The notes under the pieces: generated by a model
What the model saw: only the letters and a program-made list of their open reading frames with translations
Databases searched by the model: none
What the model was told of the DNA's origin: nothing
Shown: one piece after another, positions 3,992 to 51,955 of the stretch
How the letters are laid out: every line of letters starts with the position of its first letter
How positions within the stretch are numbered: the first letter of the stretch is position 1
Program-made: the position numbers and the translations under genes
Origin: an uncultured Clostridiaceae bacterium
Lineage (GTDB): Bacteria; Bacillota; Clostridia; TANB77; CAG-508
NCBI GenBank assembly: GCA_946493085.1
Contig: CAMMAC010000001.1
Location: 2,593 to 66,592 of the forward strand
Length of the DNA: 64,000 bases
Direction: 5' to 3'

Positions 3992-5422
3992 ATGTTAAAA
4001 AATGTACAATTTAAAATTATTTTGCTATTTTCTATTTTAGGTATTTGTCTTATTTTAGGCATGGGAATTTTAGGAATTGTTAACATGAAAGAGATGCTAT
4101 CCGAACAAGTAATGGCACAAAATGTAATACAAGCATCACAAATAGAAATGCAAATAAATAATATAGGAATGATAACAATTATATTACTACTATTATATGG
4201 TATAGCTTCTATTATTATTAGCTTATTTATGTCTCAGTCTATTTTAAAGCCACTTTCAAAAATGATAAAGGCAGCACCTAACATTATAGAGGGAGAGGAA
4301 AAACAAAATAAAAAAGATATTAAAAAGAAAAAAGAAGTAGATGAAATTACCAATGCTTTTGATAGAATATCTAATGAAATGCAAGAAAATTTAAACGAAG
4401 TGCAAAGACAAAAAAAGCAAATTGAAACCATTCTATTACACATGACAGATGGTATTATTGCTTTTAATATGGAAGGAGAAATTACGCATATTAATCCTGC
4501 TGCTACAGAAATGCTACAATTAACACAAAATGATAATTCTTTTGATAAAATATTTAAAAAATTACATATAGATATTAATTTAGAAAAAACCATCTATCTA
4601 GAAGATTGGACATCTTCGGAACAGCGTATTCGTGTGGGAGATAAATATTTGAATATTTTATTTGCTTCTTTTAAGGATGAAAAAGATAGACCTTCAGGAG
4701 TTATGGCAGTGATACAAGATATTACAGAACATGTAAAATTAGATAATATGAGAAAAGAATTTGTTGCCGATGTATCTCACGAACTAAAAACACCAATTAC
4801 TTCGATTATGGGATATGCAGATACTTTATTAGAAGGAGAATATGACAAAGAAACGCAGGAAAGATTTTTAAAGGTAATTGCAGGAGAAGCAAGAAGAATG
4901 GCAAAATTAGTATCCGACTTATTAACGCTTTCTCGTTATGATAATAACAAAGTAAAACAAGAAAGAGAAAAATTTGATTTAGGAAATCTAGTAAAAAGGT
5001 GCCAAGAAAAGCTACAGTTAGAAATTAATCGAAAAAATCACCATGTAGAATGTTTTGTTACCGCGAATGTTCCTCCAGTATATGCCAATAAAGATGGTAT
5101 AGAAAGAGTAATACTTAATATATTAACGAATAGTATTAAATACACACCAGAAGGAGGTATTATTAAAATATATGTAGGTTTTGTATATAATGATGCATAT
5201 ATTAAAGTGATTGATAATGGAATAGGAATTCCAGAAGAAGATTTGAATCGTATTTTTGAGAGATTCTATCGTGTAGATAAAGCAAGAACGAGAGAGATGG
5301 GAGGAAGCGGTTTAGGATTATCCATTGCAAAAGAAATTTTAAACCAAAATCATGGAAGTATTGATATTAAGAGTGAAAAAGGAAAAGGAACAGAGGTAGT
5401 TATTCGTATTCCAACAAAATAA
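3992..5422 (+). CDS. Sensor histidine kinase (TM, HAMP, PAS, HisKA, HATPase_c)
   Basis: H-box FVADVSHELKTPITSI. N, G1 and G2 boxes (NILTNSIKYT, DNGIGIP, GGSGLGLSIAKEI). Two N-terminal TM segments. Confidence 0.9.
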   Translation: MLKNVQFKIILLFSILGICLILGMGILGIVNMKEMLSEQVMAQNVIQASQIEMQINNIGMITIILLLLYGIASIIISLFMSQSILKPLSKMIKAAPNIIEGEEKQNKKDIKKKKEVDEITNAFDRISNEMQENLNEVQRQKKQIETILLHMTDGIIAFNMEGEITHINPAATEMLQLTQNDNSFDKIFKKLHIDINLEKTIYLEDWTSSEQRIRVGDKYLNILFASFKDEKDRPSGVMAVIQDITEHVKLDNMRKEFVADVSHELKTPITSIMGYADTLLEGEYDKETQERFLKVIAGEARRMAKLVSDLLTLSRYDNNKVKQEREKFDLGNLVKRCQEKLQLEINRKNHHVECFVTANVPPVYANKDGIERVILNILTNSIKYTPEGGIIKIYVGFVYNDAYIKVIDNGIGIPEEDLNRIFERFYRVDKARTREMGGSGLGLSIAKEILNQNHGSIDIKSEKGKGTEVVIRIPTK

Positions 5423-5491
5423 TGGTAGACATATGCACAAAAATTGTGTATAATGGTAGATAGATAAAAAAGAGAGGAAGAGACTTTATTC

Positions 5492-6118
5492 ATGATAAAA
5501 ATGAGTGATAAAACCAAAAATATATTAGAATGGATTGCCTGTTTTGCTATTGCAATTGTGCTAGCGTTACTCATTCGTTTTTATATAGGAACACCAACTG
5601 TGGTACAACAACCATCTATGTATCCTACATTGAAACAAGGGCAAAGACTAATTTTAAATAGAATGATAAGAACATTCCATGAAGTACCTCAAAGAGGAGA
5701 TATTATTACTTTTGAGGCGCCTAGCAATTCTTATGCTAGTTCTGTAAGAGCAGAATATGAAAATGAGCCAACTAACATTTTCTCTAGTTTTTCCTATTAT
5801 GTGTTAGAAATAGGAAAGAAAAGCTATATCAAAAGAGTGATTGCTCTCCCAGGAGAACAAGTAAAAATAGAAGAAGGAAAAGTATATATCAATGGAGAGC
5901 TTTTGGAGGAAGATTATCTGCAAGAAGGAGTAACAACAGATAGCAAAAATCCATATTTAACAGAATTTACAGTACCAGAAGATTGTGTATTTGCTATGGG
6001 AGATAATAGACAGCAAAGTTCGGATTGTAGAAGTTTTGGATGTATTCCATTAGACAAAATAGAAAGTAAAGTATGGATACGTTTCTGGCCATTAGATTTA
6101 TGGGGAGAAGTAAAATAA
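5492..6118 (+). CDS. lepB: Signal peptidase I (S26 family)
   Basis: TM anchor followed by the catalytic SMYPTL and GDNRQQSSDCRSFG motifs. Confidence 0.85.
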   Translation: MIKMSDKTKNILEWIACFAIAIVLALLIRFYIGTPTVVQQPSMYPTLKQGQRLILNRMIRTFHEVPQRGDIITFEAPSNSYASSVRAEYENEPTNIFSSFSYYVLEIGKKSYIKRVIALPGEQVKIEEGKVYINGELLEEDYLQEGVTTDSKNPYLTEFTVPEDCVFAMGDNRQQSSDCRSFGCIPLDKIESKVWIRFWPLDLWGEVK

Positions 6119-6149
6119 AGGATGTGCTGCAAAGGAGTGAAAAAGCAAA

Positions 6150-7049
6150 ATGGAGGAACTAATCGGAAACGATAAGGTAAAAGAGACATTGAAAAATATG
6201 GTAAAAAATCAAAAAGTAGCGCATAGTTATTTATTTTCTGGAATAGAGGGAATTGGAAAAACACTTTTTGCCAGAGAATTTGCCAAAACACTATTATGTG
6301 AAGAGCAGAAAGAAATGCCATGTGGTAAGTGTAGGTCTTGTAGGAGCTTTGCAGAAAACAACCATCCAGATTTTATGCAGATAGAACCAGACGGAAAAGC
6401 TATTAAAATTGAACAAATTCGCTATATGCAAGAAAAAATAGCAGAAAAACCAATTCAATCAAATTTTAAAATATATATCCTAAAGGATGCAGATACAATG
6501 ACGAGAGAGGCACAAAACAGTTTGCTAAAAACATTAGAAGAACCACCTATGTACGCAAGAATGATATTGGTGACAAGTAATGAAAACAAACTATTGAATA
6601 CTATTAAATCTAGATGTATTAAGATTCCTTTTTTACCAATAGAAATGGAAAAAATAAAAAAATATATGCAAAAAAACTTTTCTATGGAATTATCTGAAAA
6701 TGAGTTAACTGTTTGTGCAGGGAGCATAGGAAAAGCAATTGGTGTGCAAGAATTACTAGCACAATATCGTCAAATAGAAGGAATGATACAAAATTTAGAT
6801 AAGCAAGATTTATTGAGTTCGTTAAAAGAAAGTGAGTTTTTGCATAAAGAAAAAGATAATATACTAGAGTTGTTGGATTATATGCTAGTAATATTGTATA
6901 AGTCAAAAGATAGAGCTAAAATTAATGCAATTCATTATGTAGAGGATACGAAACAAAGAATACTAGCAAATAGTAATTATGATATGGCAATAGATTATTT
7001 ATGGATAAGAGTATGGGAGGAAGTAAATGAAAAATATAATAGGTGTTAG
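6150..7049 (+). CDS. holB: DNA polymerase III delta-prime subunit
   Basis: AHSYLFSGIEGIGKT Walker-like box plus the CGKCRSCRSF zinc module typical of HolB. Confidence 0.85.
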   Translation: MEELIGNDKVKETLKNMVKNQKVAHSYLFSGIEGIGKTLFAREFAKTLLCEEQKEMPCGKCRSCRSFAENNHPDFMQIEPDGKAIKIEQIRYMQEKIAEKPIQSNFKIYILKDADTMTREAQNSLLKTLEEPPMYARMILVTSNENKLLNTIKSRCIKIPFLPIEMEKIKKYMQKNFSMELSENELTVCAGSIGKAIGVQELLAQYRQIEGMIQNLDKQDLLSSLKESEFLHKEKDNILELLDYMLVILYKSKDRAKINAIHYVEDTKQRILANSNYDMAIDYLWIRVWEEVNEKYNRC

Positions 7050-8349: not shown

Positions 8350-8598
8350 ATGACAAACACAAATATCACAAATTTTAGAAAAGATATTTATGAATTATTA
8401 GAAACAACTATAAAGTATAATGAACCAATTAACGTTTCTACGAAAAATGGAAATGCAATCGTATTGTCTGAAGAAGATTACAATGGATTAATAGAAACTG
8501 TGAATTTATTAAATATACAAGGCATGAAAGAAAAATTAATAAAAGGAAAAGAAGAAAAAATAGAAAATTGTATTTCAGAAGAAGAGGTGGAATGGTAA
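8350..8598 (+). CDS. yefM: Type II antitoxin, Phd/YefM family
   Basis: 82 aa. The N-terminal ITNFRKDIYELLE...EPINVSTKNGNAIVLSEEDYNGLIETVNLL matches the YefM fold. Its stop overlaps the start of the toxin gene. Confidence 0.8.
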   Translation: MTNTNITNFRKDIYELLETTIKYNEPINVSTKNGNAIVLSEEDYNGLIETVNLLNIQGMKEKLIKGKEEKIENCISEEEVEW

Positions 8599-8864
8599 TG
8601 TATAAAGTAATTTATACAAAAATGGCAACAAAAGATATACCAAAATTGAAATCTAATCATTTAGATAAAAAAGCATTAGCGCTAATAGAAGTTATAAAGA
8701 ATAATCCATTCCAAACTCCACCACCATATGAAAAATTAGTAGGTGTTTTACAGGGACTATATTCCAGAAGAATAAATATAAAACATAGATTAATCTATCA
8801 AGTTTATGAGGAAGAAAAAATAGTTAAGATTATTAGTTTATGGACACACTATGAAAATATATAA
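8598..8864 (+). CDS. yoeB: Type II toxin, YoeB/Txe family (mRNA interferase)
   Basis: MYKVIYTKMATKDIPKL...LQGLYSRRINIKHRLIYQV...IISLWTHYE; YoeB-like RelE-superfamily toxin (family assignment from sequence resemblance). The RBS GAGGTGG lies 7 nt upstream of the ATG at 8598 (TAATG overlap with yefM). Confidence 0.8.
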   Translation: MYKVIYTKMATKDIPKLKSNHLDKKALALIEVIKNNPFQTPPPYEKLVGVLQGLYSRRINIKHRLIYQVYEEEKIVKIISLWTHYENI

Positions 8865-9074: not shown

Positions 9075-9884
9075 ATGAAAAAAGAGAATGGAATTACTAT
9101 GATAACGTTAGCAGTAACCATCATTGTACTAATTATACTAGCAGGAGTAAGTATCAATATGCTAGTAGGAGAGAATGGAATTATTACAATGGCACAAAAA
9201 GCCAAAGAAAATATAGAACTAGCACAAATAGAGGAAGAAAAACAATTAAATAATTTATATGGAGAATTAGTAAATGCAGGAGAAGGAATTTTTGATGATT
9301 CTATGGGAGATGCTATAGAAAAATTAGAAAATTTCAAAAAAATAATAGCAACAGCCATAACTAATGAGGGAGTAGCAACGTCCGAAACAGATACAGCAGA
9401 AACTATGTCAGAGAATATAGCAAAAATATTAGAAGAAAGAACAAAAGATGCCACAGCATCGGAGTCAGATATACTAGAAGGAAAAACAGCTTATATAAAA
9501 GGACAATTAGTAACAGGAACAAATAAGGGATATGATGTAGGATATAATGAAGGTTACGAAGCTGGAAAAAGTGGGAATGCTTTGACTTTTACAATAGCAA
9601 TGACAACAGCACCAAATATACCATCGGGAGCAGCAGCTTATCCAATACAAAATTTAAATATAGAAAATTACAGTACAATAACAGTTACAGGTAGTTTTTC
9701 TAGTCAATCAGATGGAGGTTCTTTTCAAATTTTAGCAGATGATAAGGTTATTTCAGATACAATAAGAAATAATTCTAGTATTAATATATCTTATGATATA
9801 TCTAATTATAGTAAACTTTCTCTTTACATATATGCAGGATATACTAGAGTTGTAAATGCCAATTTAAATGTACAAATACAATAA
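9075..9884 (+). CDS. Variable-family protein, copy A (intact): pilin-like N-terminal anchor, conserved ~150-aa N-module, unique beta-rich C-terminal domain
   Basis: MKKENGITMITLAVTIIVLIILAGVSINMLVGENGIITMAQKAKEN..., about 60-75% protein identity to copies E, F and D across the first ~150 aa (by-eye alignment of the ORF-track translations). The C-terminal GYDVGYNEGYEAGKSG... domain is unique. Confidence 0.75.
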   Translation: MKKENGITMITLAVTIIVLIILAGVSINMLVGENGIITMAQKAKENIELAQIEEEKQLNNLYGELVNAGEGIFDDSMGDAIEKLENFKKIIATAITNEGVATSETDTAETMSENIAKILEERTKDATASESDILEGKTAYIKGQLVTGTNKGYDVGYNEGYEAGKSGNALTFTIAMTTAPNIPSGAAAYPIQNLNIENYSTITVTGSFSSQSDGGSFQILADDKVISDTIRNNSSINISYDISNYSKLSLYIYAGYTRVVNANLNVQIQ

Positions 9885-9976
9885 TAATTTAAATAGAATA
9901 ATTTTTTAAAAGAAAGTAGCAGTCTTTATCTATAGATTGTTATTTTTTGACATTAAGAACTATAAAAACGATAAAT

Positions 9977-10077
9977 AAATTACATAAAATAAATTGCAAA
10001 ATAAAAGGAATAAATAGAAAATAAAATATAAGAATCGAGTCTTAGAAGTAAAAAACATAAAAAGAGGAGAAAAGGGA
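9977..10077 (+). promoter_or_regulatory. Type-1 leader remnant (copy B) lacking the -35/-10 block
   Basis: AAATTACATAAAATAAATTGC is present, but the TTGAAATTAACC...TATAAT segment is replaced by unrelated sequence. Confidence 0.5.
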
Positions 10078-10269
10078 ATGATTACAGAAAAAGGAATTAC
10101 AATGGTGGCTTTGGCAGTAACCATCATTGTACTAATTATACTAAGGAAATATAAATTGGAGTACAAATACGATAACAGCTATAGTAAATCGACTAGAATG
10201 TCCATTATATGTACAATTATTTACAATATTATAAAACAAAAGAATAGTATAATAGAAAAGAAAAAGTAG
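10078..10269 (+). pseudogene. Variable-family copy B: truncated remnant (only ~22 aa of the conserved N-terminus, then frame decay)
   Basis: MITEKGITMVALAVTIIVLIIL then unrelated residues. There is a 27-nt stretch identical to copy A (GCAGTAACCATCATTGTACTAATTATACTA). Confidence 0.65.
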
Positions 10270-10280
10270 TAATAATATCA

Positions 10281-11363
10281 CTACTTTTTTTCTTGTTTAA
10301 CGAAATTAGATTTTTTTATAGGAATTAAGAATAAGGCTCCTACTATAATAGGAAGGTAGAAAGTATAAATACGCCAAAATAAGATGGCTAAATTGATAGT
10401 TCCAGTTTTAAAAATAGATTGAAAGATAAGTAAAAATCCACCTTCTGCACCAAGACCAGCACCAGGAGTAGGAGTAATGGTCATAATCATTAATAAAAAG
10501 GCTTGTGCCGGAATAATTTGCCAATAGTTAATCCCAGAATTACCAAAAGCACGATATACCATATAAGTAATGGCATAATAGCATAAACTTTGCAGAGTTG
10601 CCCATATAAAAATTTGAAGAAGAATTTGCTTCTGGGTAAAGATAAATTTAAATTGATTACTAAAATGAATAATGCTATTAGTTACTTTTTCTTTCGCTTT
10701 ATTAAAATCTTTTATTATTTTTAATTTTGCCAAAAGTTTTACCCATGGTAAAGTAATTATAATAATGAGTTTCGGGTAAATTCCAGCAAATACAATAACC
10801 ACTACTAAAACAATATTAGCAACAAATCCTAAAATAGCGACCCATAGAAAATCTTGGAATAAATTCAGAAAAAAGGGTAATTCCCATAATACAACAATAA
10901 CTGTAAAAATTAATAAAGCTAATTGTGTTACAATGAATTTCATAGTTAAAATAGACATTGATTCACTAGCTCTTTTTCCTGTTTTGGTAAGAGCATAAGC
11001 CTGCATTGGCTGTCCACCAGAGGAAAATGGAGTTACATTATTAAATAACTGTCCTATCATATTTACTTTAATAGAATTTGTAAATTTTTGAGCGGGATAA
11101 AATTTTTTTAGTGGAATATGTAAGCACATAGTGTCGCAAAACCAAAGTCCAAGTAGAGCAAGAAGTCCCCAGCATACCCAAGTGTAATCTACTTGTTGTA
11201 ATACTAAAATAATATTATCTATACCATCTACCATAAACATATAAATTAATAAACCAATAAAAATAACTGCAATCAAAATAAAATTAAAAATAGTTACTTT
11301 TTTGCTAGTAGTTTTAATTTCTTGCTCTTCTGTTTCTATTTGAGAATTTTTATTGTCCTCCAT
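10281..11363 (-). CDS. Flippase-like / lysylphosphatidylglycerol-synthase-TM-domain (UPF0104) membrane protein
   Basis: 360 aa with about 8 TM helices. The pattern of conserved Gly/Pro/Trp positions (GQLFNNVTPFSSGGQPMQAYAL) is typical of the LPG_synthase_TM / flippase-like family. The RBS AGGAGGATT lies on the minus strand upstream. Confidence 0.7.
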   Translation of the reverse strand: MEDNKNSQIETEEQEIKTTSKKVTIFNFILIAVIFIGLLIYMFMVDGIDNIILVLQQVDYTWVCWGLLALLGLWFCDTMCLHIPLKKFYPAQKFTNSIKVNMIGQLFNNVTPFSSGGQPMQAYALTKTGKRASESMSILTMKFIVTQLALLIFTVIVVLWELPFFLNLFQDFLWVAILGFVANIVLVVVIVFAGIYPKLIIIITLPWVKLLAKLKIIKDFNKAKEKVTNSIIHFSNQFKFIFTQKQILLQIFIWATLQSLCYYAITYMVYRAFGNSGINYWQIIPAQAFLLMIMTITPTPGAGLGAEGGFLLIFQSIFKTGTINLAILFWRIYTFYLPIIVGALFLIPIKKSNFVKQEKK

Positions 11364-11488
11364 GTTATAGAATCCTCCTTTATTATCTTATTATTTATAT
11401 AAAAAAATAGAGAAAAAGTCAATCGAAATAAGAAAATCTTCATGAAATTTGAAAATACTGGGAAAAAATAAAATATAAGTATAAAAAT

Positions 11489-11559
11489 AAAATTACATAA
11501 AGTAAATTATAAAATGAAAAAATTGGTAGAAAATAATAAAGAAGAATATTGATGTTAAC
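11489..11559 (+). promoter_or_regulatory. Type-1 leader (copy C) with promoter TTGATG-17-CATAAT
   Basis: AAATTACATAAAGTAAATT motif plus the TTAACCAAAAAGTAATACATAAT promoter block. Confidence 0.5.
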
Positions 11560-11893
11560 CAAAAAGTAATACATAATATTTGATAATTTAAAGCAAGAAT
11601 TTCAAGATTTTAAAAAACAAATTGCAGAAGCATTAACCAATAAAGGTGTACAAACAGAAGAAACAGATTCTATAGAAAGCATAGTGGAGAATATTGGTAA
11701 GCAGGGTGGTAGTGGAATACAACGAATAAAAATAGGAAGTTCTTATAATGCTTCTACAGGTATTTTAACTATTTCTAGTACAAGTAATTCTGGACATTTT
11801 GATAAGGGAGATGGAAATGGAGGTATTATGTGGACAGAAGATTGGTCATGTAGTATTCAATTTGATGTTTATGCATTTATACCAAATGTATGA
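11560..11893 (+). pseudogene. Variable-family copy C: 5'-deleted copy (no start codon and no TM anchor) that retains the end of the conserved module fused to a unique C-terminal domain
   Basis: In-frame translation ...NLKQEFQDFKKQIAEALTNKGVQTEETDSIESIVENIGKQ aligns to LENFKKIIATAITNEGVATSETDTAETMSENIAKIL of copy A. The tail GSGIQRIKIGSSYNASTGILTISSTSNSGHF...WSCSIQFDVYAFIPNV is unique. Confidence 0.6.
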
Positions 11894-12029
11894 AACATGA
11901 TTTTTTAAATTAACCTCGAGTGATAAAGGAAAAATTTCTAGTCACTAGAGGTAATTTTTTATGCCTATTAGATATTACTAAATTACGAAGTAAGAAAAAA
12001 TTTATTAAAAAAGTAATAAGATAGTATGA

Positions 12030-12167
12030 AAATTACATAAAATAGATTGCTAAAAGAAAAAGTTAAATAGAAAATAAGTATATGAAAAGATTTAATATTA
12101 ACCAAAAGGTAATACATAAAAAGTATTAAAATAAAAGATAGGAAACATAAGAAAAAGGAGAAAAGCA
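12030..12167 (+). promoter_or_regulatory. Type-1 leader (copy D), promoter partly degraded (TTAATA / TACATA)
   Basis: AAATTACATAAAATAGATTGC is exact. The -35/-10 are weakened relative to copies A and E. Confidence 0.5.
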
Positions 12168-12652
12168 ATGAAGAGAGAAAATGGAATTACCATGATAACG
12201 TTAGCCGTAACCATTATTGTGTTAATTATCTTAGCAGGAGTAAGTATCAATATGTTGGTAGGAGATAATGGGATTATTACAATGGCGCAAAAAGCCAAGG
12301 AAAATATGGAACTAGCACAAATAGAAGAAGAGGAACAAATGAACAGTTTATATGAAGAATTAGCTAATGGGGCGAAGGAATTTTTGACGATTCTATGGGA
12401 GATGCTATAGAGAAATTAGAAAATTTTAGAAAGATAATAGCAACAGCTATAACGAATGAAGGAGTTGCTACAGCAGAAACAATGGCAGAGAATATTAGTA
12501 AAATATTAGAAGCAAGGACAAAAGATGTAACAGCTACAGCAGAAGATATAGCAGAAGGAAAAACAGCCTATGTAAATGGAGAAAAGATAGTAGGGACTGA
12601 AAAATATATTCATCTTATCCTAATACTGCAGGTATATATTATTGGAAATTAG
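12168..12652 (+). pseudogene. Variable-family copy D: frameshifted within the conserved module (two ORFs, 12168-12410 and 12395-12652), with the C-terminal domain missing
   Basis: MKRENGITMITLAVTIIVLIILAGVSINMLVGDNG... The frame breaks at ...EELANGAKEFLTILWEML and resumes as MGDAIEKLENFRKIIATAITNEGV.... It ends soon after DIAEGKTAYVNGEKIVGTEK. Confidence 0.7.
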
Positions 12653-12738
12653 AATACTAATCGAAATTAAAACTTTAGAAGGCAGAGAGAAATCTCTGTT
12701 TTATTTTTTGAGAAAAAAGAAAGTATAAAAATAAAAAG

Positions 12739-12880
12739 AAAATTACATAAAATTAATTGCATAGCAAAAGAAATAAATAGAAAATAAAATAAAGAAATGT
12801 TGAAATTAACCAAAAGATAAGATATAATAAAAGTATAAAGAATAGAAAAAATGGAAAACATAAGAAAAGGAGAAAACGTA
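12739..12880 (+). promoter_or_regulatory. Type-1 leader (copy E) with consensus TTGAAA(12799-12804)-17-TATAAT(12822-12827)
   Basis: Same architecture as the copy A leader. Confidence 0.7.
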
Positions 12881-13642
12881 ATGAAAAAAGAAAATGGAAT
12901 TACAATGATTACTTTAGCAGTGACGATAATTGTGTTAATTATATTAGCGGGAGTAAGTTTAAATATGACGGTAGGGGAAAGTGGAATTATCACTATGGCA
13001 CAGAAAGCAAAAGAAAACATGGAACTGGCAAAGGTAGAAGAAGAGGAACAGTTAAATAGTTTGTATGAAGAATTAGAAAAAGGAGGAGAAGGAATTTTCG
13101 ATGATTCTATGGCAGATGCTATAGAAAAACTAGAAAATTTTAGAAAGATAATAGCAACAGCTATAACGAATGAAGGAGTAAGTACAGCAAGCACAGATTC
13201 AGCAGAAACCATGGCAGAAAATATAGGTAAAATATTGCAGGAAAGAACCAAGGATGCAACTGCTATGGCGGATGATCTATCTAATGGAGTAACAGCCTAT
13301 GTAAATGGACAGAAAATAACAGGAAATGGAATGGATGTAAATAATAGTTATAATAATGGATATAATGTGGGGTATCAGGACGGAAAACAACAAAGTAACG
13401 TGAAGCAATATTCTATGTCCTTTAGTATAGGAATTAATACTACGCAAACGTATAATTTAGATAATTATGTGCAAGGAGGAAATTTATTAACTGCTTCTAT
13501 TACTTCTTGGTCAGAACCATATACAGTTAAAGCAACTTCGTTTCAATTAACGGTAAATGGAAATGTTGTTACAATTAAATATTCTAGTGGTGATGTTGGA
13601 TTTGCTGGTAGTGGTACTATCGTATTTTATTATTATGAATAG
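12881..13642 (+). CDS. Variable-family protein, copy E (intact)
   Basis: MKKENGITMITLAVTIIVLIILAGVSLNMTVGESGIITMAQKAKEN... The C-terminus YNNGYNVGYQDGKQQS...LTVNGNVVTIKYSSGDVGFAGSGTIVFYYYE is related to copy A only in the GY(D/N)VGY motif. The RBS AAAGGAGAAAA precedes the ATG at 12881. Confidence 0.75.
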   Translation: MKKENGITMITLAVTIIVLIILAGVSLNMTVGESGIITMAQKAKENMELAKVEEEEQLNSLYEELEKGGEGIFDDSMADAIEKLENFRKIIATAITNEGVSTASTDSAETMAENIGKILQERTKDATAMADDLSNGVTAYVNGQKITGNGMDVNNSYNNGYNVGYQDGKQQSNVKQYSMSFSIGINTTQTYNLDNYVQGGNLLTASITSWSEPYTVKATSFQLTVNGNVVTIKYSSGDVGFAGSGTIVFYYYE

Positions 13643-16961: not shown

Positions 16962-17024
16962 GTGTCCATTTAAGTCAGTCTTTTTTGAGACATGTCTCAT
17001 TTAACCCTGACTTAAATGGACATT
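16962..17024 (-). repeat. REP-like composite palindromic repeat (full copy, minus orientation)
   Basis: Outer 15-bp inverted repeat GTCCATTTAAGTCAG...CTGACTTAAATGGAC around the self-complementary core GAGACATGTCTC. The reverse complement aligns nearly end to end with 46682-46743. Confidence 0.7.
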
Positions 17025-17145
17025 AGTCGAATGATGTCGAAAAATAACTGATTGTACATTAGTATTGTTAAATCACATACAATATGATATATTAGTATAT
17101 GGAAATAATCATAAAGACCAACACTAAGTACAATAGTACATAGTA

Positions 17146-17429: not shown

Positions 17430-18788
17430 ATGTTATCGAAAGCGAAAAATTTTATGCTACTATTAGGAATGACAAGCATTTTTATACTTTTATGGACAGC
17501 TAGTAGCTATGCTACAACAGGAATTGTAAATACAGAAACATTGAAATTAAGAAAAGCCCCTTCTACTAGTTCAGAAATATTAGATTTACTAGACTATAAT
17601 GAGAAGTTAGAAATAACAGGCGAAGAAGGTGAATGGTACAGTGTAGTACATGAAGGAACAGCAGGTTATGTGAGCAAGCAATATATGAGAGTAGAAGAGG
17701 AAGAAGAGACACAAACGAATACACAAGTAAGTGAAACGGTAGCAACTACCGAGGTAGAAAATGTACTGGAAAATACTACTACAAATACAACAACAGAAAC
17801 TACAAGCGCAGAGGTTACTCAGCCAGAAGAGACAACTACGCCAACACAAAATGTATTAAAAGAAGATACACAAATTAGCATCTTACCTTTAATACAAGCT
17901 AGTAAAATAGGAACAGAAAAGAAAGGAACTAGTGTAGAAATAATCACAACGGCTGGAAATTGGTGTTACATTGCGACAGAAAATCTAAATGGATGGGTAA
18001 GACAGGATGCTTTAGAAACTGAAACACCACAAACGACTACTCCAGAAGAAACTACACCAACTACAGAGGAGACTCCAGCTACAACCGAACAAGAAACAGC
18101 AATAGAAGAAACAACTATGTATGTAACAGGTTCTTCGGTTTATGTAAGATCAGGACCTGGAACAAACTATGAAATTGTTACCTCTCTTATTAGAGGAAAT
18201 TCCGTAAAGGCAGTTGCAGAAACAAGCCAGTGGTATAAAGTAGAAGTAAATGGACAAACCGGTTATATTTCCAAAAGCTTAGTATCTACTACAAGACCAG
18301 AAACTACATCTAGAGGTACAGAAACCTCTAGAACGCAAGACGAAGAAGAGCAGGTAAGTAGTACACCACAAGAAGAAAATACACAAGTAGAACAAACAGT
18401 AGTACAAACAAGTACTGGTCAGCAAATTGTAGATTATGCGAAAAACTATTTAGGATGCAAGTATGTTTATGGAGGTTCTGGACCAAATACATTTGATTGT
18501 TCCGGATTTACGATGTATGTTTACCAAAAATTTGGAGTAACACTTAGTCATTCTGCTAGAGCACAATCTAAGGTAGGAACAGCAGTAGAAAAAGAAAACT
18601 TACAATTAGGAGATTTAGTATTTTTTAAAGATTACGAGACCATGGACGGAATAGGTCACTGTGGTATTTATATAGGAGATGGCAACTTTATTCATGCCTC
18701 TTCTGGAACAGGATATTGTGTAAAAATCTCTACCTTATTATCTGGTAGTTATGCTACAAGATATGAAACAGCAAGAAGAGTTATTTAA
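17430..18788 (+). CDS. Secreted cell-wall hydrolase: signal peptide, two SH3b domains, Thr/Glu-rich linkers, C-terminal NlpC/P60 endopeptidase
   Basis: SH3b-like ...LKLRKAPSTSSEILDLLDYNEKLEI..WYSV... is present twice. The NlpC/P60 catalytic region is DCSGFTMYVYQKFG...H...GHCGIYIGDG. Confidence 0.85.
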   Translation: MLSKAKNFMLLLGMTSIFILLWTASSYATTGIVNTETLKLRKAPSTSSEILDLLDYNEKLEITGEEGEWYSVVHEGTAGYVSKQYMRVEEEEETQTNTQVSETVATTEVENVLENTTTNTTTETTSAEVTQPEETTTPTQNVLKEDTQISILPLIQASKIGTEKKGTSVEIITTAGNWCYIATENLNGWVRQDALETETPQTTTPEETTPTTEETPATTEQETAIEETTMYVTGSSVYVRSGPGTNYEIVTSLIRGNSVKAVAETSQWYKVEVNGQTGYISKSLVSTTRPETTSRGTETSRTQDEEEQVSSTPQEENTQVEQTVVQTSTGQQIVDYAKNYLGCKYVYGGSGPNTFDCSGFTMYVYQKFGVTLSHSARAQSKVGTAVEKENLQLGDLVFFKDYETMDGIGHCGIYIGDGNFIHASSGTGYCVKISTLLSGSYATRYETARRVI

Positions 18789-18847: not shown

Positions 18848-21280
18848 GTGAAGAAAATGCAAATTGCTCTATTTGGTTGGATATTAGGATTGATAGGGGG
18901 ACTATACTTACCAAAATTAAGTATAGTCTTTTTTCTATGCTTTTTATTAGGAATACTACTATTAAAAAATGTAAAGAAAAAATATAGCATGCTTAGGATT
19001 GTACAAAGGCATATTTCCTATCAAAAAATTATCGTCATGGCAATAAGTTTTATCCTAGCCTTTCTACTTATACAAGAAAAAGAAAGAGATTATAGCCAAA
19101 GATACGCAGAGGTAATGGGGGAGGCAGAAGTGATAGGCACCATTGTGAGCATGCCAAAAGAAAAAGAATATAGAACGGATTATACCATGCAAGTAGAGAG
19201 CATAAATGGACAAATTTTGCAAAAGAATACCAAAATTTTGTTACAGCTAAAAAAGGGAAAACAAGCACAAAAGAATTTAGTTTATGGAAATAAAATAAAA
19301 GTAAAAGTAGAATTAAAAATGCCAACAGAAGCTAGAAATACGGGAGGGTTTGATTACAGTTTTTATTTAAAAACAAAGCAAATTTATGCAATTGCTATAG
19401 GTAAAGAAGATGATGTTACTCTTTTAAAAAACGAAAATAGCAATTTGTGGCAAAAAGCAGTAACGGCGGTAAAGCAGTCTATTATAGAACAAGTAAAGAA
19501 AGTATTGCCACAAGAGGAAGCAGACTTATTTATAGGCATATTAATTGGAGAAAGACAAGGGATACAAGAAGAAATCGAAAAGAATTTTAAAAATAGTAGT
19601 TTAACTCATCTTCTAGCTGTTTCTGGTTCTCATGTAGCTTATATTTTGATGGGAGTTACTTTTGCTGTAACGCAGCTAAAAGGAGACAAAAAAATAGGGA
19701 AAATAGGAACCATTTTATTTCTATTCTTTTTCATGGAATTAACAGATAGAACTGCATCGGTAGTAAGAGCGTGTATTATGGCAATGTATGCTATAGTAGC
19801 GAATTTATGTCATAAAAAAATAGATTGGCTAGGTAGTATTTGCTTTAGCTTGTGGTGGATATTGTTAGAAAATCCGTATAGTTTATGGGATACCTCCCTT
19901 ATTTTGTCTTATGGAGGAACAATAGGCATTTTATTATTTATTCCTCTTTTTCAGAAAAAGCAAAATCCAAACGAGGGGAAAAATCATAAACTATTAGAAA
20001 AGTGTAAAAATTATCTAAAGGAAAGTTTCATAATTACTATTAGTGCCAACTTAATTTTACTTCCCATTATGGCGTATTTATTTTATACTTTATCTTTTAC
20101 CTTTTGGATAGGTAATTTGCTGGCTACACCGCTCATGGAAGGAATTATATTCATAGGTATTGCATTTTTGGCAAGTGCCTATTTATGCATGCCTTTAGCA
20201 ATAATAATAGCTGTGTCATTAAAATGCCTGTTACAATTATTACTGCTAGTAGCAAAAGTATGTGCAAACCTACCTTTCTCTAATATAAGTGTAATAAGAC
20301 CACCCGTGGTTGGTATACTTTTCTACTACATATTTCTATTTTTGTGGATAGGATATGGTAGATTGTCCCAAAGAAGAAAAGCACAAATAAAAGAAATGTA
20401 TAGAAAAAAGAGAAAGACCGTTTTGATAAGTTTCCTACTCATGGTTGTTCTTCTAACATTGCTATATAAAGTACCAGGAGAGTTAGAAATCTTTTTTATA
20501 GATGTTGGTCAAGGAGACAGCATGTTAGTGATAACACCACAAAAGAAAACTTTGCTAGTAGATGGAGGAGGGAGTAAAAGCACAAGTTTTGATGTGGGCG
20601 AGCAAACGCTACTTCCTTACTTATTGAATAAAGGAATTAAAACTATCGATTATATGATGCCATCTCATTTTGATGAAGACCACGTGCAAGGATTATTTAC
20701 TATTCTAGAAAAATTAACCGTAAAAAAGGTAATTGTAGCAGAGCAAAAAGTAGATTCAGAAAATTATCAAAAATTTATGAAATTCGTAGAAGAAAAAAAT
20801 ATACAAACTATATGGGTAAAACAGGGAGATAAAATTTTATTAGAAAAAGGAGTAAACTTAGATATTTTATGGCCAAAAACAGAATGGATAGCAGAAAATC
20901 CACTCAATAATAATGCTATTGTAGCAAATTTGCATTATGGGAAATTTAGTTTATTATTCACAGGAGATATAGAAGAAATAGCAGAAAAAGAAATTCTACA
21001 ATGCTATCAAAATACAGAGTTATGCAAGGCTACTGTGTTAAAAGTAGCCCATCACGGCTCAAAATCCTCTAGTATACAGTCTTTTTTAACAATGATAAAA
21101 CCAAAAATTGCTTTAATTGGTGTGGGAGAAACGAACACCTTTGGACATCCAAATGAGGGTGTTTTAGAAAGGTTAGAAAAGATAGGTGCCAAAATTTATA
21201 GAACAGATGAAAATGGAGAAATCAGTCTAAAAGTAAACAAAGAAGGAAAAATAAAAATAAATACCAAAATTGGAAAATAA
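18848..21280 (+). CDS. comEC: DNA internalization competence protein ComEC/Rec2 (DUF4131, competence domain, metallo-beta-lactamase domain)
   Basis: 810 aa polytopic membrane region followed by an MBL-fold domain (FIDVGQGDSMLV...HFDEDHVQG...AHHGSKSS). Confidence 0.85.
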   Translation: MKKMQIALFGWILGLIGGLYLPKLSIVFFLCFLLGILLLKNVKKKYSMLRIVQRHISYQKIIVMAISFILAFLLIQEKERDYSQRYAEVMGEAEVIGTIVSMPKEKEYRTDYTMQVESINGQILQKNTKILLQLKKGKQAQKNLVYGNKIKVKVELKMPTEARNTGGFDYSFYLKTKQIYAIAIGKEDDVTLLKNENSNLWQKAVTAVKQSIIEQVKKVLPQEEADLFIGILIGERQGIQEEIEKNFKNSSLTHLLAVSGSHVAYILMGVTFAVTQLKGDKKIGKIGTILFLFFFMELTDRTASVVRACIMAMYAIVANLCHKKIDWLGSICFSLWWILLENPYSLWDTSLILSYGGTIGILLFIPLFQKKQNPNEGKNHKLLEKCKNYLKESFIITISANLILLPIMAYLFYTLSFTFWIGNLLATPLMEGIIFIGIAFLASAYLCMPLAIIIAVSLKCLLQLLLLVAKVCANLPFSNISVIRPPVVGILFYYIFLFLWIGYGRLSQRRKAQIKEMYRKKRKTVLISFLLMVVLLTLLYKVPGELEIFFIDVGQGDSMLVITPQKKTLLVDGGGSKSTSFDVGEQTLLPYLLNKGIKTIDYMMPSHFDEDHVQGLFTILEKLTVKKVIVAEQKVDSENYQKFMKFVEEKNIQTIWVKQGDKILLEKGVNLDILWPKTEWIAENPLNNNAIVANLHYGKFSLLFTGDIEEIAEKEILQCYQNTELCKATVLKVAHHGSKSSSIQSFLTMIKPKIALIGVGETNTFGHPNEGVLERLEKIGAKIYRTDENGEISLKVNKEGKIKINTKIGK

Positions 21281-21928: not shown

Positions 21929-21947
21929 TATATTTGGGTGAACTTTA

Positions 21948-21978
21948 GGGGCAGTCCTTAAAGTTCATTTAGAAAAAT
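21948..21978 (+). terminator. GAACTTTAGGG palindrome family member, acting as a terminator after the 21338 gene
   Basis: GTGAACTTTAGGGGcagTCCTTAAAGTTCAT forms an RNA stem with G-U wobbles only on the plus strand. Confidence 0.6.
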
Positions 21979-22012
21979 AAAAGTTAGTTCGTAACCGTGA
22001 ATAATGCTCACT

Positions 22013-22043
22013 GTCCCATTTAAATCAGGGATAAGTGGGACAT
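22013..22043 (+). repeat. REP-like repeat, partial copy (GTCCCATTTAAATCAGGGATAAGTGGGACATTTTT)
   Basis: Matches the right half of the 46682-46743 element. It sits immediately upstream of a type-2 leader. Confidence 0.65.
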
Positions 22044-22168
22044 TTTTAAAAATAAAGTCGAAAATTATGGAAATAAGTAACTACTAAAAAGCAAAAATAA
22101 AGAGTAAAGAAAAATAGAGAAACGATATAATCCTCTCTGTAAAATTAGATAGCAGGGAGGATAAAATT
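22044..22168 (+). promoter_or_regulatory. Type-2 conserved leader (copy F): GTCGAAAATTATGGAAATAAGTAAC...TATAAT followed by an SD-sequestering hairpin (22132-22160)
   Basis: CCTCTCTG pairs with CAGGGAGG (one G-U wobble), occluding the RBS GGGAGGA. The same architecture occurs at 22915-23010 and 46744-46862. Confidence 0.6.
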
Positions 22169-22906
22169 ATGCCAAAACAAAAGAGTGGAGAAGAAGGAAT
22201 TACTATGATAACTTTAGCAGTAACAATCGTAGTATTAATTATTTTGGCAGGAGTTAGTCTAAATGCAACTGTAGGAGAAAATGGAATTATCTCGCAGGCA
22301 CAAAAAGCAAGGGAGAATATAGAGATAGCAAGAGAAGAAGAAGAGATACAATTAAATAATTTGTATGAAGAATTAGCAAAGGGAGGAGAAGGGATTTTTG
22401 ATGATTCTATGACAGATGCCATAGAAAAATTAGAAAACTTTAGAAAAATAATAGCAACAGCCATAACAAATGAAGGAGTTACTACAGTAGAAACAGATAC
22501 AGCGGAAACAATGGCAGAAAATATTAGTAAAATATTACAAGAACGAACAAAAGATGCAACAGCAACAGCAGAAGATATAGCAGAGGGAAAGACTGCTTAT
22601 GTGAATGGGAATAAAGTAGTTGGAACAGCTCATAATAGTGATGAAATTACTTTTTCAACGTTGTTAGTAAATTCAAGTTCTAGTAAATGTCTTATTGTTC
22701 CTTTAAATAAAAATTATAAAAATCTATCTATAACAAATATTTCAGGAGGAACAGGAGGCACAGGAACTGCAACTGTATATTTAGATGAAGTAGATAGCGG
22801 AACTTTTTATGCGGGAATGCCAGTTCCAATTGAATATGATTTAACAGATGTAGAAGAACTAAAGATTACTGGAAATCAAGTTTTCTTTACTCTAACAATT
22901 TTATAG
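22169..22906 (+). CDS. Variable-family protein, copy F (intact): N-terminal extension MPKQKSGEE, then the conserved module and a unique C-terminal domain
   Basis: GITMITLAVTIVVLIILAGVSLNATVGENGIISQAQKAREN...DIAEGKTAYVNGNKVVGT, then a unique tail (...ISGGTGGTGTATVYLDEVDSGTFYAGMPVPIEYDL...). Confidence 0.75.
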   Translation: MPKQKSGEEGITMITLAVTIVVLIILAGVSLNATVGENGIISQAQKARENIEIAREEEEIQLNNLYEELAKGGEGIFDDSMTDAIEKLENFRKIIATAITNEGVTTVETDTAETMAENISKILQERTKDATATAEDIAEGKTAYVNGNKVVGTAHNSDEITFSTLLVNSSSSKCLIVPLNKNYKNLSITNISGGTGGTGTATVYLDEVDSGTFYAGMPVPIEYDLTDVEELKITGNQVFFTLTIL

Positions 22907-22914
22907 GATTATGG

Positions 22915-23010
22915 AAATAAGTATCCACTAAAAAGAGAAATAAAAAGGTAACAAAAAATAAAGAAAATATATAATCCTCCTTGAAATTAGAGAAATCAAG
23001 GAGGATAAAC
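22915..23010 (+). promoter_or_regulatory. Type-2 leader (remnant G) with a perfect 10-bp SD-sequestering stem (TCCTCCTTGA / TCAAGGAGGA)
   Basis: TATAAT at 22970-22975. The hairpin spans 22975-23006. Confidence 0.55.
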
Positions 23011-23061
23011 TATGAACAAACAAAAGCAACAAAAGAATAAACAAAGAAGAATCGCACGATA
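23011..23061 (+). pseudogene. Variable-family remnant G: 16-codon N-terminal stub (MNKQKQQKNKQRRIAR*), homologous to the start of copy I (MMQKQKNKQKGITLI...)
   Basis: Sequence similarity to the first codons of the 46863 gene. A stop codon replaces the TM anchor. Confidence 0.5.
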
Positions 23062-23214
23062 AGTTTATATAATAACAAAATAACATAAAACGAATTGTAG
23101 TTAAAAAAGAAATAAGAGAAAATAAAAATAATACTTGATAATAGCCAAAAGGTAATGTACAATAAAGGTATAAATGTGAAAGAAATGGAAAACATAAGAA
23201 GAAGGAGTAAAAAA

Positions 23215-23481
23215 ATGAAAAATAATACAGGAATAACGATGGTTTCGTTAGTAGTAACTATAATAGTGTTAATCATCTTGGCAGGAGTAAGTATTAATAT
23301 GCTAGTAGGGGATAATGGAATTATAACCTTAGCACAAAAGGCGAAAGAAAATACAGAATTGGCACAAATAGAAGAAGAAAAACAATTGAATAGTTTATAT
23401 GGAGAATTAGTAAATAGCGGTGATGGAATTTTTGATGATTCTAATGTAGAGGCAATAGAGAAGAAAATGCAATTATTATAG
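23215..23481 (+). pseudogene. Variable-family copy H: truncated after ~85 aa of the conserved module (diverged type-1 leader at 23078-23214)
   Basis: MKNNTGITMVSLVVTIIVLIILAGVSINMLVGDNGIITLAQKAKENTELAQIEEEKQLNSLYGELVNSGDGIFDDSNVEAIEKKMQLL*. Confidence 0.65.
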
Positions 23482-23483
23482 GA

Positions 23484-23642
23484 GCAGGGGCAATCAGTCG
23501 TGATTATAAAGGTTGGACAGGTTTTAATATAAGTTATACGAATGATACCGTAACAGTTACATTTGGTTTAGATGGTAGTAGAGTTGTAAATTCTGATGGA
23601 AATTGGAAGATTAGAGTTTGGTATCAAATTGCATCGAAATAA
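23484..23642 (+). pseudogene. Orphan C-terminal cassette fragment of the variable family (out of frame with copy H)
   Basis: Translation ...DYKGWTGFNISYTNDTVTVTFGLDGSRVVNSDGNWKIRVWYQIASK* is beta-rich and resembles the tails of copies A and E. Confidence 0.4.
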
Positions 23643-31230: not shown

Positions 31231-31268
31231 TTGAACTTTAGGGAACTTCCTTAAAGTTCAATTTTTTT
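31231..31268 (+). terminator. GAACTTTAGGG palindrome family member: canonical intrinsic terminator
   Basis: TTGAACTTTAGGGAActTCCTTAAAGTTCAATTTTTTT; the stem pairs perfectly apart from one G-U wobble and is followed by a T-run. Confidence 0.8.
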
Positions 31269-37959: not shown

Positions 37960-38304
37960 ATGGTAATAAAAAGAGGAGATATGTTCTATGCGGATTTAAG
38001 TCCTGTAGTAGGTTCAGAACAAGGAGGAATTAGACCGGTTATTATCATACAAAATGATATAGGAAATAAGCATAGTCCCACTGTAATTGCAGCAGCAATT
38101 ACCTCTCAGACAGGAAAAAATAAATTACCTACTCATATAGAAATAGGCTCACAAAATAATGGATTAAAGTCAGATTCGATTGTGCTCACAGAACAAATAC
38201 GTACAATTGATAAAAGTAGATTAAAAGAAAAAATTGGGCATATTGATGATGAAGTGGTAATGGAAAAAATTAATAATGCACTAGGTGTTAGTTTTGGTTT
38301 GTGA
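37960..38304 (+). CDS. mazF: MazF/PemK/EndoA-family type II toxin endoribonuclease
   Basis: MVIKRGDMFYADLSPVVGSEQGGIRPVIIIQNDIGNKHSPTVIAAAITSQ closely matches EndoA/MazF. Confidence 0.85.
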   Translation: MVIKRGDMFYADLSPVVGSEQGGIRPVIIIQNDIGNKHSPTVIAAAITSQTGKNKLPTHIEIGSQNNGLKSDSIVLTEQIRTIDKSRLKEKIGHIDDEVVMEKINNALGVSFGL

Positions 38305-38331
38305 ACTTTAAGGAACGTCCCTAAAGTTCAC
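38301..38331. terminator. GAACTTTAGGG palindrome family member between convergent genes
   Basis: GTGAACTTTAAGGAAcgTCCCTAAAGTTCAC followed by TTCTTTTT. Confidence 0.6.
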
Positions 38332-38338
38332 ATTCTTT

Positions 38339-42989: not shown

Positions 42990-43021
42990 AAATGTCCATT
43001 TAACCCTGAATTAAATGAGAC
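42990..43021 (+). repeat. REP-like repeat, half copy (AATGTCCATTTAACCCTGAATTAAATGAGAC)
   Basis: Shares the AATGTCCATTTAA...AAATGAGAC arms with the 16962 and 46682 elements. Confidence 0.55.
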
Positions 43022-43040
43022 TTTTTGAATAAAAATTACC

Positions 43041-43070
43041 AAAAGCCCCAGAAGTCTACTGGGGCTTTGG
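43041..43070. terminator. Bidirectional intrinsic terminator (AAAAGCCCCAgaagtctacTGGGGCTTTGG)
   Basis: 7-bp GC-rich stem flanked by A-run and T-run, between smc (+) and the minus-strand genes. Confidence 0.7.
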
Positions 43071-46703: not shown

Positions 46704-46743
46704 GTGAGACATGTCTCAAAAATGTCAGGGATAAGTGGGACAC
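46682..46743 (+). repeat. REP-like composite repeat (full copy) overlapping the 3' end of the ATPase and abutting the type-2 leader
   Basis: GTCCCATTCAAGTCAGGGTTAAGTGAGACATGTCTCAAAAATGTCAGGGATAAGTGGGACAC: internal palindrome GAGACATGTCTC and direct repeats of GTCAGGG(A/T)TAAGTG(A/G)GAC. Confidence 0.7.
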
Positions 46744-46862
46744 ACAAAGAAAAAAGTCGAAAATTATGGAAATAAGTAACCAGTAAAAAAGGAAAAGTAA
46801 AAGAGAAGAAAAAGCAAAGAAAGATATAATCCTCTTTATAAGAAAAAAGCAAGGAGGATAAG
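46744..46862 (+). promoter_or_regulatory. Type-2 leader (copy I) with TATAAT (46825-46830) and an SD-sequestering hairpin (46831-46858)
   Basis: CCTCTTT pairs with AAGGAGG(A) (includes a G-U wobble). Conserved block GTCGAAAATTATGGAAATAAGTAAC at 46756. Confidence 0.55.
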
Positions 46863-51890: not shown

Positions 51891-51955
51891 TATATATACT
51901 ATAATTTTATAGATGACAAATGCGAATGTGTGCTGTTTCATATAGGAGGTATAAT

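Follow-up and report, generated by a model that had tools for sequence, protein, structure and literature searches.

Small palindromic repeats have, to our knowledge, been well studied in Proteobacteria and Neisseria, barely in Clostridia and not in the lineage considered here, and we know of no repeat family that carries a Spo0A box. Integration host factor (IHF) sites are found in Correia elements and in RIB- and RIP-type bacterial interspersed mosaic elements (BIMEs), and a phage-encoded recombinase that integrates into the neisserial dRS3 repeat is known. The dRS3 repeats of neisserial intergenic mosaic elements (NIMEs) are inverted repeats of the form ATTCCC-N8-GGGAAT, accompanied by repeat sequence (RS) spacers of 50-150 bp, and have been proposed as recombination substrates; Correia elements lie upstream of genes and affect their expression (PMC1797815). 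The properties of repetitive extragenic palindromic (REP) doublets forming hairpins (REPINs) and of the REP-associated tyrosine transposases (RAYTs) have also been described (PMC5581495). We analyzed a 64,000-nt stretch of contig CAMMAC010000001.1 from an uncultured Clostridiaceae bacterium (hereafter, the window), in which an initial annotation had flagged five places as a REP-like composite palindromic repeat family. All five hold the element, and the designation was borne out: the repeat is short, palindromic, nearly always intergenic, multi-copy and restricted to one lineage. Comparison with related genomes shows its anatomy, its confinement to intergenic DNA and to a narrow group of genomes, its persistence at orthologous sites with turnover in whole 31-nt units and the position of unit ends at strain-variable cassette breakpoints. 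With moderate confidence, we regard the family as a mosaic repeat akin to REP/BIME elements or NIMEs, non-coding, intergenic and limited to one lineage, with a Spo0A-box module.

The aligned copies gave a 31-nt unit consensus, TGTCCCA-N6-TCAGGG-N-TAA-N-TGGGACA. Its termini (TGTCCCA/TGGGACA) are 7-bp perfect inverted repeats, and its interior (TCAGGG.TAA) is asymmetric and conserved, the TCAGGG loop motif being nearly invariant. A purine precedes and a pyrimidine follows the unit, with no conserved tetranucleotide in the flanks. Units occur alone or exactly abutting, in direct or inverted orientation, and belong to three subtypes, designated alpha, beta and gamma (Table 1). A weight matrix built from 61 copies was used to catalogue them in 350 kb, consisting of the window and three related metagenome-assembled genomes (MAGs), all named 'uncultured Clostridia bacterium' (E0_LS bin212, E0_DM bin141 and BRZ_BM bin119), whose syntenic pieces are 90-97% identical to the window; L-numbers below are labels of related loci or contigs that were compared. 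The catalogue contained 84 units in 59 clusters, 35 of them single, 23 double and one triple. By orientation, the doublets comprised seven ++, seven +- and nine -+ arrangements (16 inverted, 7 direct), and the spacing of adjacent units was 31 nt in 24 of 25 pairs and 32 nt in one, in all relative orientations. Most clusters (54/59) were intergenic, as opposed to 87% coding DNA (binomial P ~1e-42). Four of the other five lay within short, probably spurious open reading frames (ORFs), and one, in L018, over the last codons of a gene. Flanking genes were co-directional at 26 clusters, divergent at 16 and convergent at 11.

The repeat family does not extend beyond one narrow clade of uncultured, sporulating Clostridia, whose genomes have dozens of units each. 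A scan of the genome collection with the pattern TCAGGGWTAARTGRGACA returned 85 loci, approximately 55 of which came from the three sister MAGs, and the remaining matches were isolated single hits in a number close to chance expectation. With a stricter pattern, only 11 contigs were found in metagenomes, all from one assembly (OLGN01) and 98-99% identical to the window, and none among viral contigs; BLAST searches of the units against phage and plasmid collections also gave no match. A literature search with the half-site sequences yielded nothing relevant, and exact-protein look-ups of three window proteins found none on record. The window itself (G+C content, 31%) belongs to the core chromosome of an organism resembling sporulating Clostridia, with genes for EF-G/EF-Tu, pyruvate:ferredoxin oxidoreductase, ComEC, BofC-like, ClpB-like, MinD/E and SMC-like proteins and a P-type ATPase, the SMC-like identification resting on the orthologous gene in L114.

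Applied to the window, the matrix detected seven units in five clusters (copies A-E, Table 1). The dodecamer GAGACATGTCTC, the self-complementary core of the initial annotation, occurs there exactly twice (16987-16998 and 46706-46717; 0.03 expected) and proved to be the junction of two abutting units (...TGAGACA|TGTCTCA...; GAGACA|TGTCTC in copy A). The arm motif GTCAGGGTTAAGTGAGAC had five matches with up to 3 mismatches, compared with 0.06 expected; one of the five, at 63099 inside a Fur-like gene, was set aside as a chance hit. The proposed GTCAGGG-type arms are the right halves of units, and the description suits one arm of copy A, the other being the variant GTCAGTCTTTTTTGAGAC. Across 54 nt, copy A (16966-17019) is 83% complementary to copy B (46685-46738), and the two are hence in inverted relative orientation, as had been noted. 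Copy A is identical at the orthologous locus L015, and copy C in eight strains (L093 and L097-L103). The reported overlap of copy B with the ATPase gene is also real: its first unit encodes the final 8 codons and the TAA stop (46701-46703) in the C-terminal frame of the ATPase, although gene calls scored this cluster as intergenic. The site of copy D has no unit in the more distant relative L114, and copy E is conserved and intact in L046 and L016.

Several copies form stable predicted hairpins. The RNA fold of copy A has -31 kcal/mol (z = -5.7), z-scores were significant for copies A, C and D, and the complementarity of stem pairs 11-21 and 12-20 is kept in both subtypes, all of which would suit a structured RNA, such as a terminator, an mRNA-stabilizing 3' hairpin or a small RNA. 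We consider such a role very improbable. Copy E folds no better than shuffled sequence, and in alpha units the stem is limited to 7 bp around a 17-nt interior. Units lie in both orientations relative to flanking genes and also in divergent promoter regions. Rfam searches gave no hit at gathering score in the window, none for copy B at E up to 1, and near copy A only weak hits outside the element. Terminator scans found none at the units, which are not followed by a T-run; with 16 clusters in divergent promoter regions and separate terminators beside copies D and E, a terminator reading was rejected.

The second component, module X, is a 17-nt motif (AAGAATAATGTCGAAAA) located 8 nt beyond one end of the unit. 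A strict pattern recognized it at 22 of 59 clusters and inspection by eye at about half; among the 22, the offset was 8 nt in 16, and X faced a gene start 35-230 nt away in 19. The three best matches in the window are those beside copies A, B and C. An exact TGTCGAA core is present in 13 of the 22 X copies and GTCGAA in 17. TGTCGAA is the established core of the Spo0A box in Bacillus and C. difficile, a 7-bp sequence with A/T-rich flanks (PMC3485338), and X agrees with it in this core. Across 461 kb, we counted 30 perfect TGTCGAA heptamers, 21 of which sit 12-15 nt from a unit end, and all 21 point away from the unit. Judged by its sequence, module X is a putative Spo0A-binding site. The initial annotation had suggested protein binding for the repeat; the suggestion gains support for X, which lay outside its description, but not for the unit itself. 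Relative to X, alpha units are oriented 15 to 3 and beta units 6 to 11 (Fisher P = 0.006), so that unit and X (unit+X) make up a composite of fixed orientation, apart from the beta loop, which flips.

Unit+X precedes the spoIIAA-spoIIAB-sigF operon (by approximately 110 nt), which is an established direct target of Spo0A, as well as pta, dinB, holA, argS and rsmE (genes confirmed by NCBIfam), a gene that looks nuoE-like by eye, the NlpC/P60 gene of copy A (Pfam) and type-2 leaders, which are described below. At the spoIIAA promoters of five further lineages, TGTCGAA is kept at -105 to -114 from the start codon, together with a second, inverted box, indicating that X at this position is a native Spo0A box. 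One of these lineages, L117 (GCA_047017125.1), alone has a palindrome, TGTCCA-N17-TGGACA, 8 nt from the spoIIAA box, with termini as in the unit and a different interior; upstream of spoIIAA in L121 there are other GTCCC-containing direct repeats, and the remaining lineages have nothing of this kind. Similarity of X between loci ends directly after TGTCGAAAA, and the fully specified form was found only beside units and at spoIIAA. As a separate observation, the gap between spoIIAA and spoIIAB, about 30 bp in other lineages, is filled in one lineage (L123-L125, 909-1240) by some 330 bp of AT-rich sequence that has long inverted repeats inside it; this block looks like an insertion of the miniature inverted-repeat transposable element (MITE) type.

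One tentative explanation, which we think possible but not likely, is that a REP-like element became joined to the spoIIA Spo0A box and copied this box to about twenty promoters, or that insertion was targeted to the 5' side of Spo0A boxes. It draws on the abrupt end of X similarity, the restriction of full X to units and spoIIAA, the unit linkage of 21 of the 30 cores, a case in which unit and X were inserted together (L067, see below) and the L117 palindrome with the same termini and 8-nt spacing. The same palindrome, at the same distance from the spoIIAA box, could instead mark an operator: the units would then be sites of a dimeric transcription factor with half-sites TGTCCCA/TGGGACA that acts with Spo0A, native to its regulon and not spreading. 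The gene-facing position of X in 19 of 22 cases, the frequently better conservation of units than of flanks and the near-invariant TCAGGG loop, needless for a bare hairpin, would all be expected of operators. However, convergent genes, between which no promoter lies, flank 11 of 59 clusters, copy B and the L018 cluster run into the ends of reading frames, units form exact tandem doublets and a triplet in any relative orientation, and one orthologous site has three unit configurations across three related species. No such palindrome is present in four of six spoIIAA promoter lineages. We therefore find the operator explanation unlikely. A sigma-H/sigma-A promoter spanning unit and X (alpha+X resembles GGA-N-GAAT by eye) was also considered and not adopted, as the -35 part is missing from reversed beta units and X is followed downstream by clear sigma-A promoters.

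Most clusters are kept at the orthologous sites of sister species, and changes proceed by whole units. Exact 31-nt insertions or deletions distinguish L053 from L090 and copy B of the window from its counterpart in L087, a 98.5% identical strain that has only the second unit; L077 and L073 differ by about 31-32 nt. At the nuoE-like site, the subtype is beta in L039, alpha in L042 and gamma+beta in L050. Of 15 orthologous pairs that agreed in unit number, 11 had a unit at least as conserved as its 60-nt flanks, and in the others it had changed wholesale. An impression from L086/L064 that units evolve faster than flanks was discarded, as pooled identity was 0.82 for units and 0.81 for flanks, with a bimodal distribution. 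Compared with window 38302-38340, L067 contains an inserted block of about 130 bp in which a hairpin of a second family, H2, a unit and X occur together.

The H2 family is palindromic as well, with 26 copies in the sequences examined, four in the window (Table 1) and others in L067, L053, L014 and elsewhere. It has the forms TGAACTTTARGGAACGTCCCTAAAGTTCA and TGCAATTTA...TAAATTGCA, the outer stem varying in a compensatory manner (AAC/GTT vs CAA/TTG) and the 5-nt loop flipping. Many H2 copies are bordered by A- and T-runs and resemble bidirectional terminators, and some lie 12-58 nt from a unit. In L067, H2 is duplicated around the inserted unit+X block.

The initial annotation had associated the repeat with type-2 cassettes, two copies lying directly 5' of type-2 leaders. 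These are copies C and B, each followed by the complete leader of a pilin-like gene, and the association is real, since the type-2 leader begins with X, which is itself fused to the unit at 8 nt; unit+X also precedes unrelated genes, so the association is not exclusive. The third type-2 leader of the window is truncated and has no unit (Table 1). The cassettes bring their own leader with a TATAAT element. In L087, the ATPase gene is followed by a single alpha unit and then directly by the sequence at window 48750, one unit and the whole 2-kb cassette of copy B being missing. At a further site, compared among L089, L058, L028 and L029, the left flank and unit are common and divergence is complete from the base after GGGACA, the contents being one pilin-like cassette, one 1.5-kb toxin-antitoxin-like pair and, in two cases, unrelated short DNA. 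Among internal homology breakpoints, 8 of 43 were within 10 nt of a unit end, in loci chosen for containing units. Exact breaks at unit ends at these two sites give some support to the proposal that the repeat acts as a recombination hotspot. There are also observations that point away from unit ends: one breakpoint between L093 and the window lies inside the leader, the window cassette at copy B has no unit at its 3' end, and distant relatives have zero (L114 and L107-L109) or two (L106 and L110) cassettes at the ATPase-esterase site with no unit anywhere. The hot spot thus exists without units, and the idea that units seed cassette insertion is weakened accordingly.

These data also bear on whether units are attC/attI-like sites at whose ends a site-specific recombinase inserts and excises cassettes, pilin-like or toxin-antitoxin. 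The exact breaks at the last unit base at two sites, an insertion in bin119 (L049/L050 vs L039) with doublets of gamma and a further unit on both sides, the tandem cassettes of L014, each starting with unit+X, and the strain-variable cargo (an MqsR/MqsA-like pair, assigned by eye, in L028 and an AAA-ATPase/PDDEXK_9 gene in L106) are of the kind expected. Because unit-free relatives carry cassettes at the ATPase-esterase site, the two in L106 and L110 included, a role as attachment site is unlikely, and the missing 3' unit at copy B, the L093 breakpoint within the leader and the position of most clusters away from variable DNA add to this. No recombinase was found beside any unit array in 460 kb, where the only candidates were a frameshifted IS110-family gene and an Rpn-family nuclease; no IntI-type integrase was found in the window or the loci. 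Taken together, we consider this explanation quite improbable. Unit ends at cassette breakpoints fit dispersed homology or fragile hairpins, and a dedicated recombinase is not required.

The pilin-like family comprises 24 members in 10 loci and has 339 relatives in metagenomes, and its proteins gave no match in Pfam and NCBIfam. In an all-versus-all clustering of 426 ORFs of the loci, it was the sole multi-copy family near units, the other clusters being housekeeping orthologs. The seven paralogs of the window (Table 1) share an N-terminus, K-G-I-T-[LM]-I-[AT]-L-[AV]-V-T-I-I-V-L-I-I-L-A-G-V, without a glutamate at +5, and have variable C-terminal parts; type 1 leaders are without units, and type 2 leaders have unit+X. 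The toxin-antitoxin-like cassette of L028 (5606-6973) abuts a unit, encodes a 113-aa toxin-like and a 336-aa zinc-ribbon/HTH ORF and is missing from the orthologous sites of L058 and L029. A YefM/YoeB-type toxin-antitoxin pair lies directly upstream of the first pilin-like gene block of the window, and a 5.3-kb block with an FtsX-type permease has no units at its ends, is missing in bin119 (L016) and L114 and is present in L107. In one strain (L097, 350-4357), an element with large serine recombinases (Resolvase, Recombinase, Zn_ribbon_recom and DUF4368 domains) and a PemK toxin interrupts comEC about 600 bp before its end, near window 20670, which recalls prophage-like elements that interrupt sporulation or competence genes.

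A partner RAYT or IS200-like gene, suggested by the initial annotation, was not found in the loci examined. Searches by tblastn with IS608 TnpA, IS200 TnpA and E. coli RAYT against 414 kb gave a best E of 0.37, in what was a weak test, and no ORF bracketed by units in the RAYT layout was present in about 350 kb of incomplete MAGs, likewise a weak negative. These results concern the view that a single-copy RAYT, an HUH Y1 transposase with its gene at some other place in the genome, copies the repeat as a true REP/REPIN family. The size of the repeat, its palindromic form and its position outside genes agree with this view, and inverted doublets give long hairpins, as REPINs do (-31 kcal/mol for copy A); yet single units make up 35 of 59 clusters, direct doublets occur as often as inverted ones of a given order, a GTAG-like 5' tetranucleotide is lacking, and neither the Y1 queries nor the survey for unit-flanked ORFs, as RAYT genes are flanked by REPINs, pointed to such an enzyme. 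We regard this possibility as quite improbable. The MITE-type assignment held for the 7-bp terminal inverted repeats, but target-site duplications are absent, with no duplicated flank at the 31-nt indels, and no insertion sequence with unit-matching ends, the expected parent, was found in the loci.

Other candidate partners were examined and rejected. An IS110-family transposase gene (assigned by eye) at 5144-6428 on the minus strand of L032, in two ORFs by frameshift, lies 860 nt from a unit+X; it is single-copy, has no split unit at its ends and was judged incidental, although no other transposase-like gene was seen in the loci with units. An Rpn-family nuclease occurs among pilin-like genes of L002 and, like the IS110-family gene, has no consistent linkage to units. 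A ToxN/AbiQ-like ORF (by eye) lies beside a direct doublet in L012. In type III systems, the antitoxin repeats are without exception direct and precede the toxin gene, and a link of the units with such repeats was rejected.

Several points weigh against our interpretation of the family as a spreading mosaic repeat with a Spo0A-box module. No enzyme able to move the units was identified in the loci examined, and the argument for mobility is therefore drawn from comparisons only. Several of the 31-nt polymorphisms are explicable as deletions between neighboring units. The stems show covariation at pair 12-20 only, where it is confounded with subfamily, and pair 5-27 varies without compensation. 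Some X cores are degenerate (AGTCGAA and TGCCTGA), and the nearest sigma-A-like -10 element is found at a variable distance from X, about -50 to about -85. With about 16-21 exact 18-mer matches per MAG, the copy number is modest and not in the hundreds of classical REPs, and the selection of loci for containing units inflates the enrichments of breakpoints and Spo0A boxes.

As a mechanism for such a mosaic repeat, we propose that their hairpin and dispersed homology may allow units to spread and turn over, whether by slippage, by ectopic recombination or by gene conversion and possibly with the aid of an enzyme not seen in the loci examined, and that they would be maintained by sequence constraint and turned over in whole-unit steps. 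Unit+X would place a predicted Spo0A site upstream of genes, type-2 pilin-like cassettes included, and such a site would tie the downstream genes to stationary-phase entry and sporulation. As dispersed homology, units may favor exchange or deletion of neighboring cassettes. The presence of the competence gene comEC makes exchange by transformation and homologous recombination plausible, as has been proposed for neisserial minimal mobile elements (PMC1797815).

The features of the window are collected in Table 1.

Table 1. Repeat units, X modules and neighboring features of the window, followed by the unit subtypes.
Feature	Position	Strand	Description
Copy A	16962-17023	.	Units 16962-16992 and 16993-17023, abutting
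Make-up of copy A			Left unit gamma, TGTCCATTTAAGTCAGTCTTTTTTGAGACA; right unit beta on the minus strand; jointly a 62-nt hairpin
Module X of copy A	17025-17043	+	Two tandem Spo0A-box-like heptamers, 10 nt apart: AGTCGAA 17025-17031, TGTCGAA 17035-17041; these face the NlpC/P60-SH3 gene
NlpC/P60-SH3 gene	17430-18788
ComEC competence gene	18848-21280
Copy C	22012-22042	+	Single unit, TGTCCCATTTAAATCAGGGATAAGTGGGACA
Module X of copy C	22049-22064	+	AAAATAAAGTCGAAAA; continues into type-2 leader 22064-22165 and pilin-like gene 22169-22906
Third type-2 leader	22908-23009		Truncated, no unit; 16-codon remnant follows (22908-23060)
Copy D	42992-43022	-	Single degenerate unit between convergent SMC-like gene (end 42974) and small minus-strand ORF
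Terminator beside copy D	43042-43068		Canonical, separate from the unit
P-type cation ATPase gene	44057-46703		Two ORFs, 44057-46558 and 46437-46703
Copy B	46681-46742	+	Two abutting direct units, 46681-46711 and 46712-46742
Module X of copy B	46748-46763	+	AGAAAAAAGTCGAAAA; start of the 2-kb cassette
2-kb cassette	46743-48749		X, type-2 leader 46763-46864, 581-aa pilin-like gene 46863-48608, terminator
Copy E	58357-58387	+	Single unit with 1-nt deletion, convergent intergenic region
Terminators beside copy E	58128-58159, 58405-58436		Separate from the unit
H2 copies	21939-21967, 31232-31260, 38302-38330, 63942-63970
Pilin-like paralogs	9075-13642, 22169-23500, 46863-48608		Seven genes
YefM/YoeB-type pair	8350-8864		Toxin-antitoxin
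5.3-kb variable block	51643-56945		FtsX-type permease 52634-54919, ABC ATPase 54942-55604 and neighbors
Alpha subtype			TGTCCCA(A/G)AAATGTCAGGGATAAGTGGGACA; 7-bp stem and 2-bp closing stem only
Beta subtype			TGTCCCATTTAAGTCAGGGTTAAATGGGACA; 11-12-bp stem, 7-nt loop; palindromic
Gamma subtype			TGTCCATTTAAGTCAGTCTTTTTTGAGACA

In the P-type cation ATPase gene next to copy B, a frameshift near 46440-46470 (...SIFKM / GFLENKYLL...) divides the coding sequence between two ORFs. The gene is also split in every relative examined (L087, L106, L110 and L114), into about 805-833 aa and about 90 aa with the end of Cation_ATPase_C. As the same arrangement occurs in relatives whose neighboring esterase is 69-88% identical, the split is conserved and not a sequencing error, and programmed frameshifting or a stable division of the gene could account for it.

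Surface-protein and toxin-antitoxin cassettes come and go at unit ends between strains that are more than 98% identical, and strict 31-nt modularity, a gene-facing predicted master-regulator site and ends that mark cassette gain and loss meet here in one testable case. Spread of a repeat with a Spo0A box could alter which genes answer to Spo0A. If the Spo0A link holds, the family would illustrate, in bacteria, how a non-coding mobile repeat rewires regulation, and if the box was captured from spoIIA, a mobile repeat would have brought genes, including strain-variable pilin-like cassettes, into the regulon that initiates sporulation. If the link fails, the family would still serve as a marker for strain typing and assembly breaks in this clade.

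In comparison with known systems, the family resembles the REP/BIME elements of Enterobacteria and Pseudomonas, which are 30-40-nt imperfect extragenic palindromes, single or in alternating clusters that form long hairpins, and which are lineage-specific and stable at orthologous sites, with varying number; BIMEs also combine palindromes with other short motifs. It differs from them in that units abut without a spacer (31-nt period, 24/25), direct doublets are as common as inverted ones of either order, a GTAG-type 5' motif and a detectable RAYT are missing and copies number dozens rather than hundreds; in addition, the extra motif here is a gene-oriented predicted transcription-factor box. 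With NIMEs it shares short inverted repeats, conserved 6-7-bp termini and strain-variable arrays beside variable surface-protein genes, and with neisserial minimal mobile elements the alternative small cassettes at one position in different strains. However, units abut, without 50-150-bp RS spacers, their sequence is unrelated to ATTCCC-N8-GGGAAT, the host is a Gram-positive sporeformer, and, unlike the case of dRS3, no phage-encoded recombinase is known for them. Like integron attC sites, units are imperfect palindromes at cassette boundaries with strain-variable content, but no IntI-type integrase was found, cassettes include a promoter region of their own, most units lie away from cassettes, and unit-free relatives have cassettes at the same site. 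As in Correia elements and IHF-carrying repeats, a small intergenic repeat puts a binding or promoter element before many unrelated genes; in contrast to these, the predicted site is a Spo0A box of consensus sequence, identical to the one native to the spoIIA promoter.

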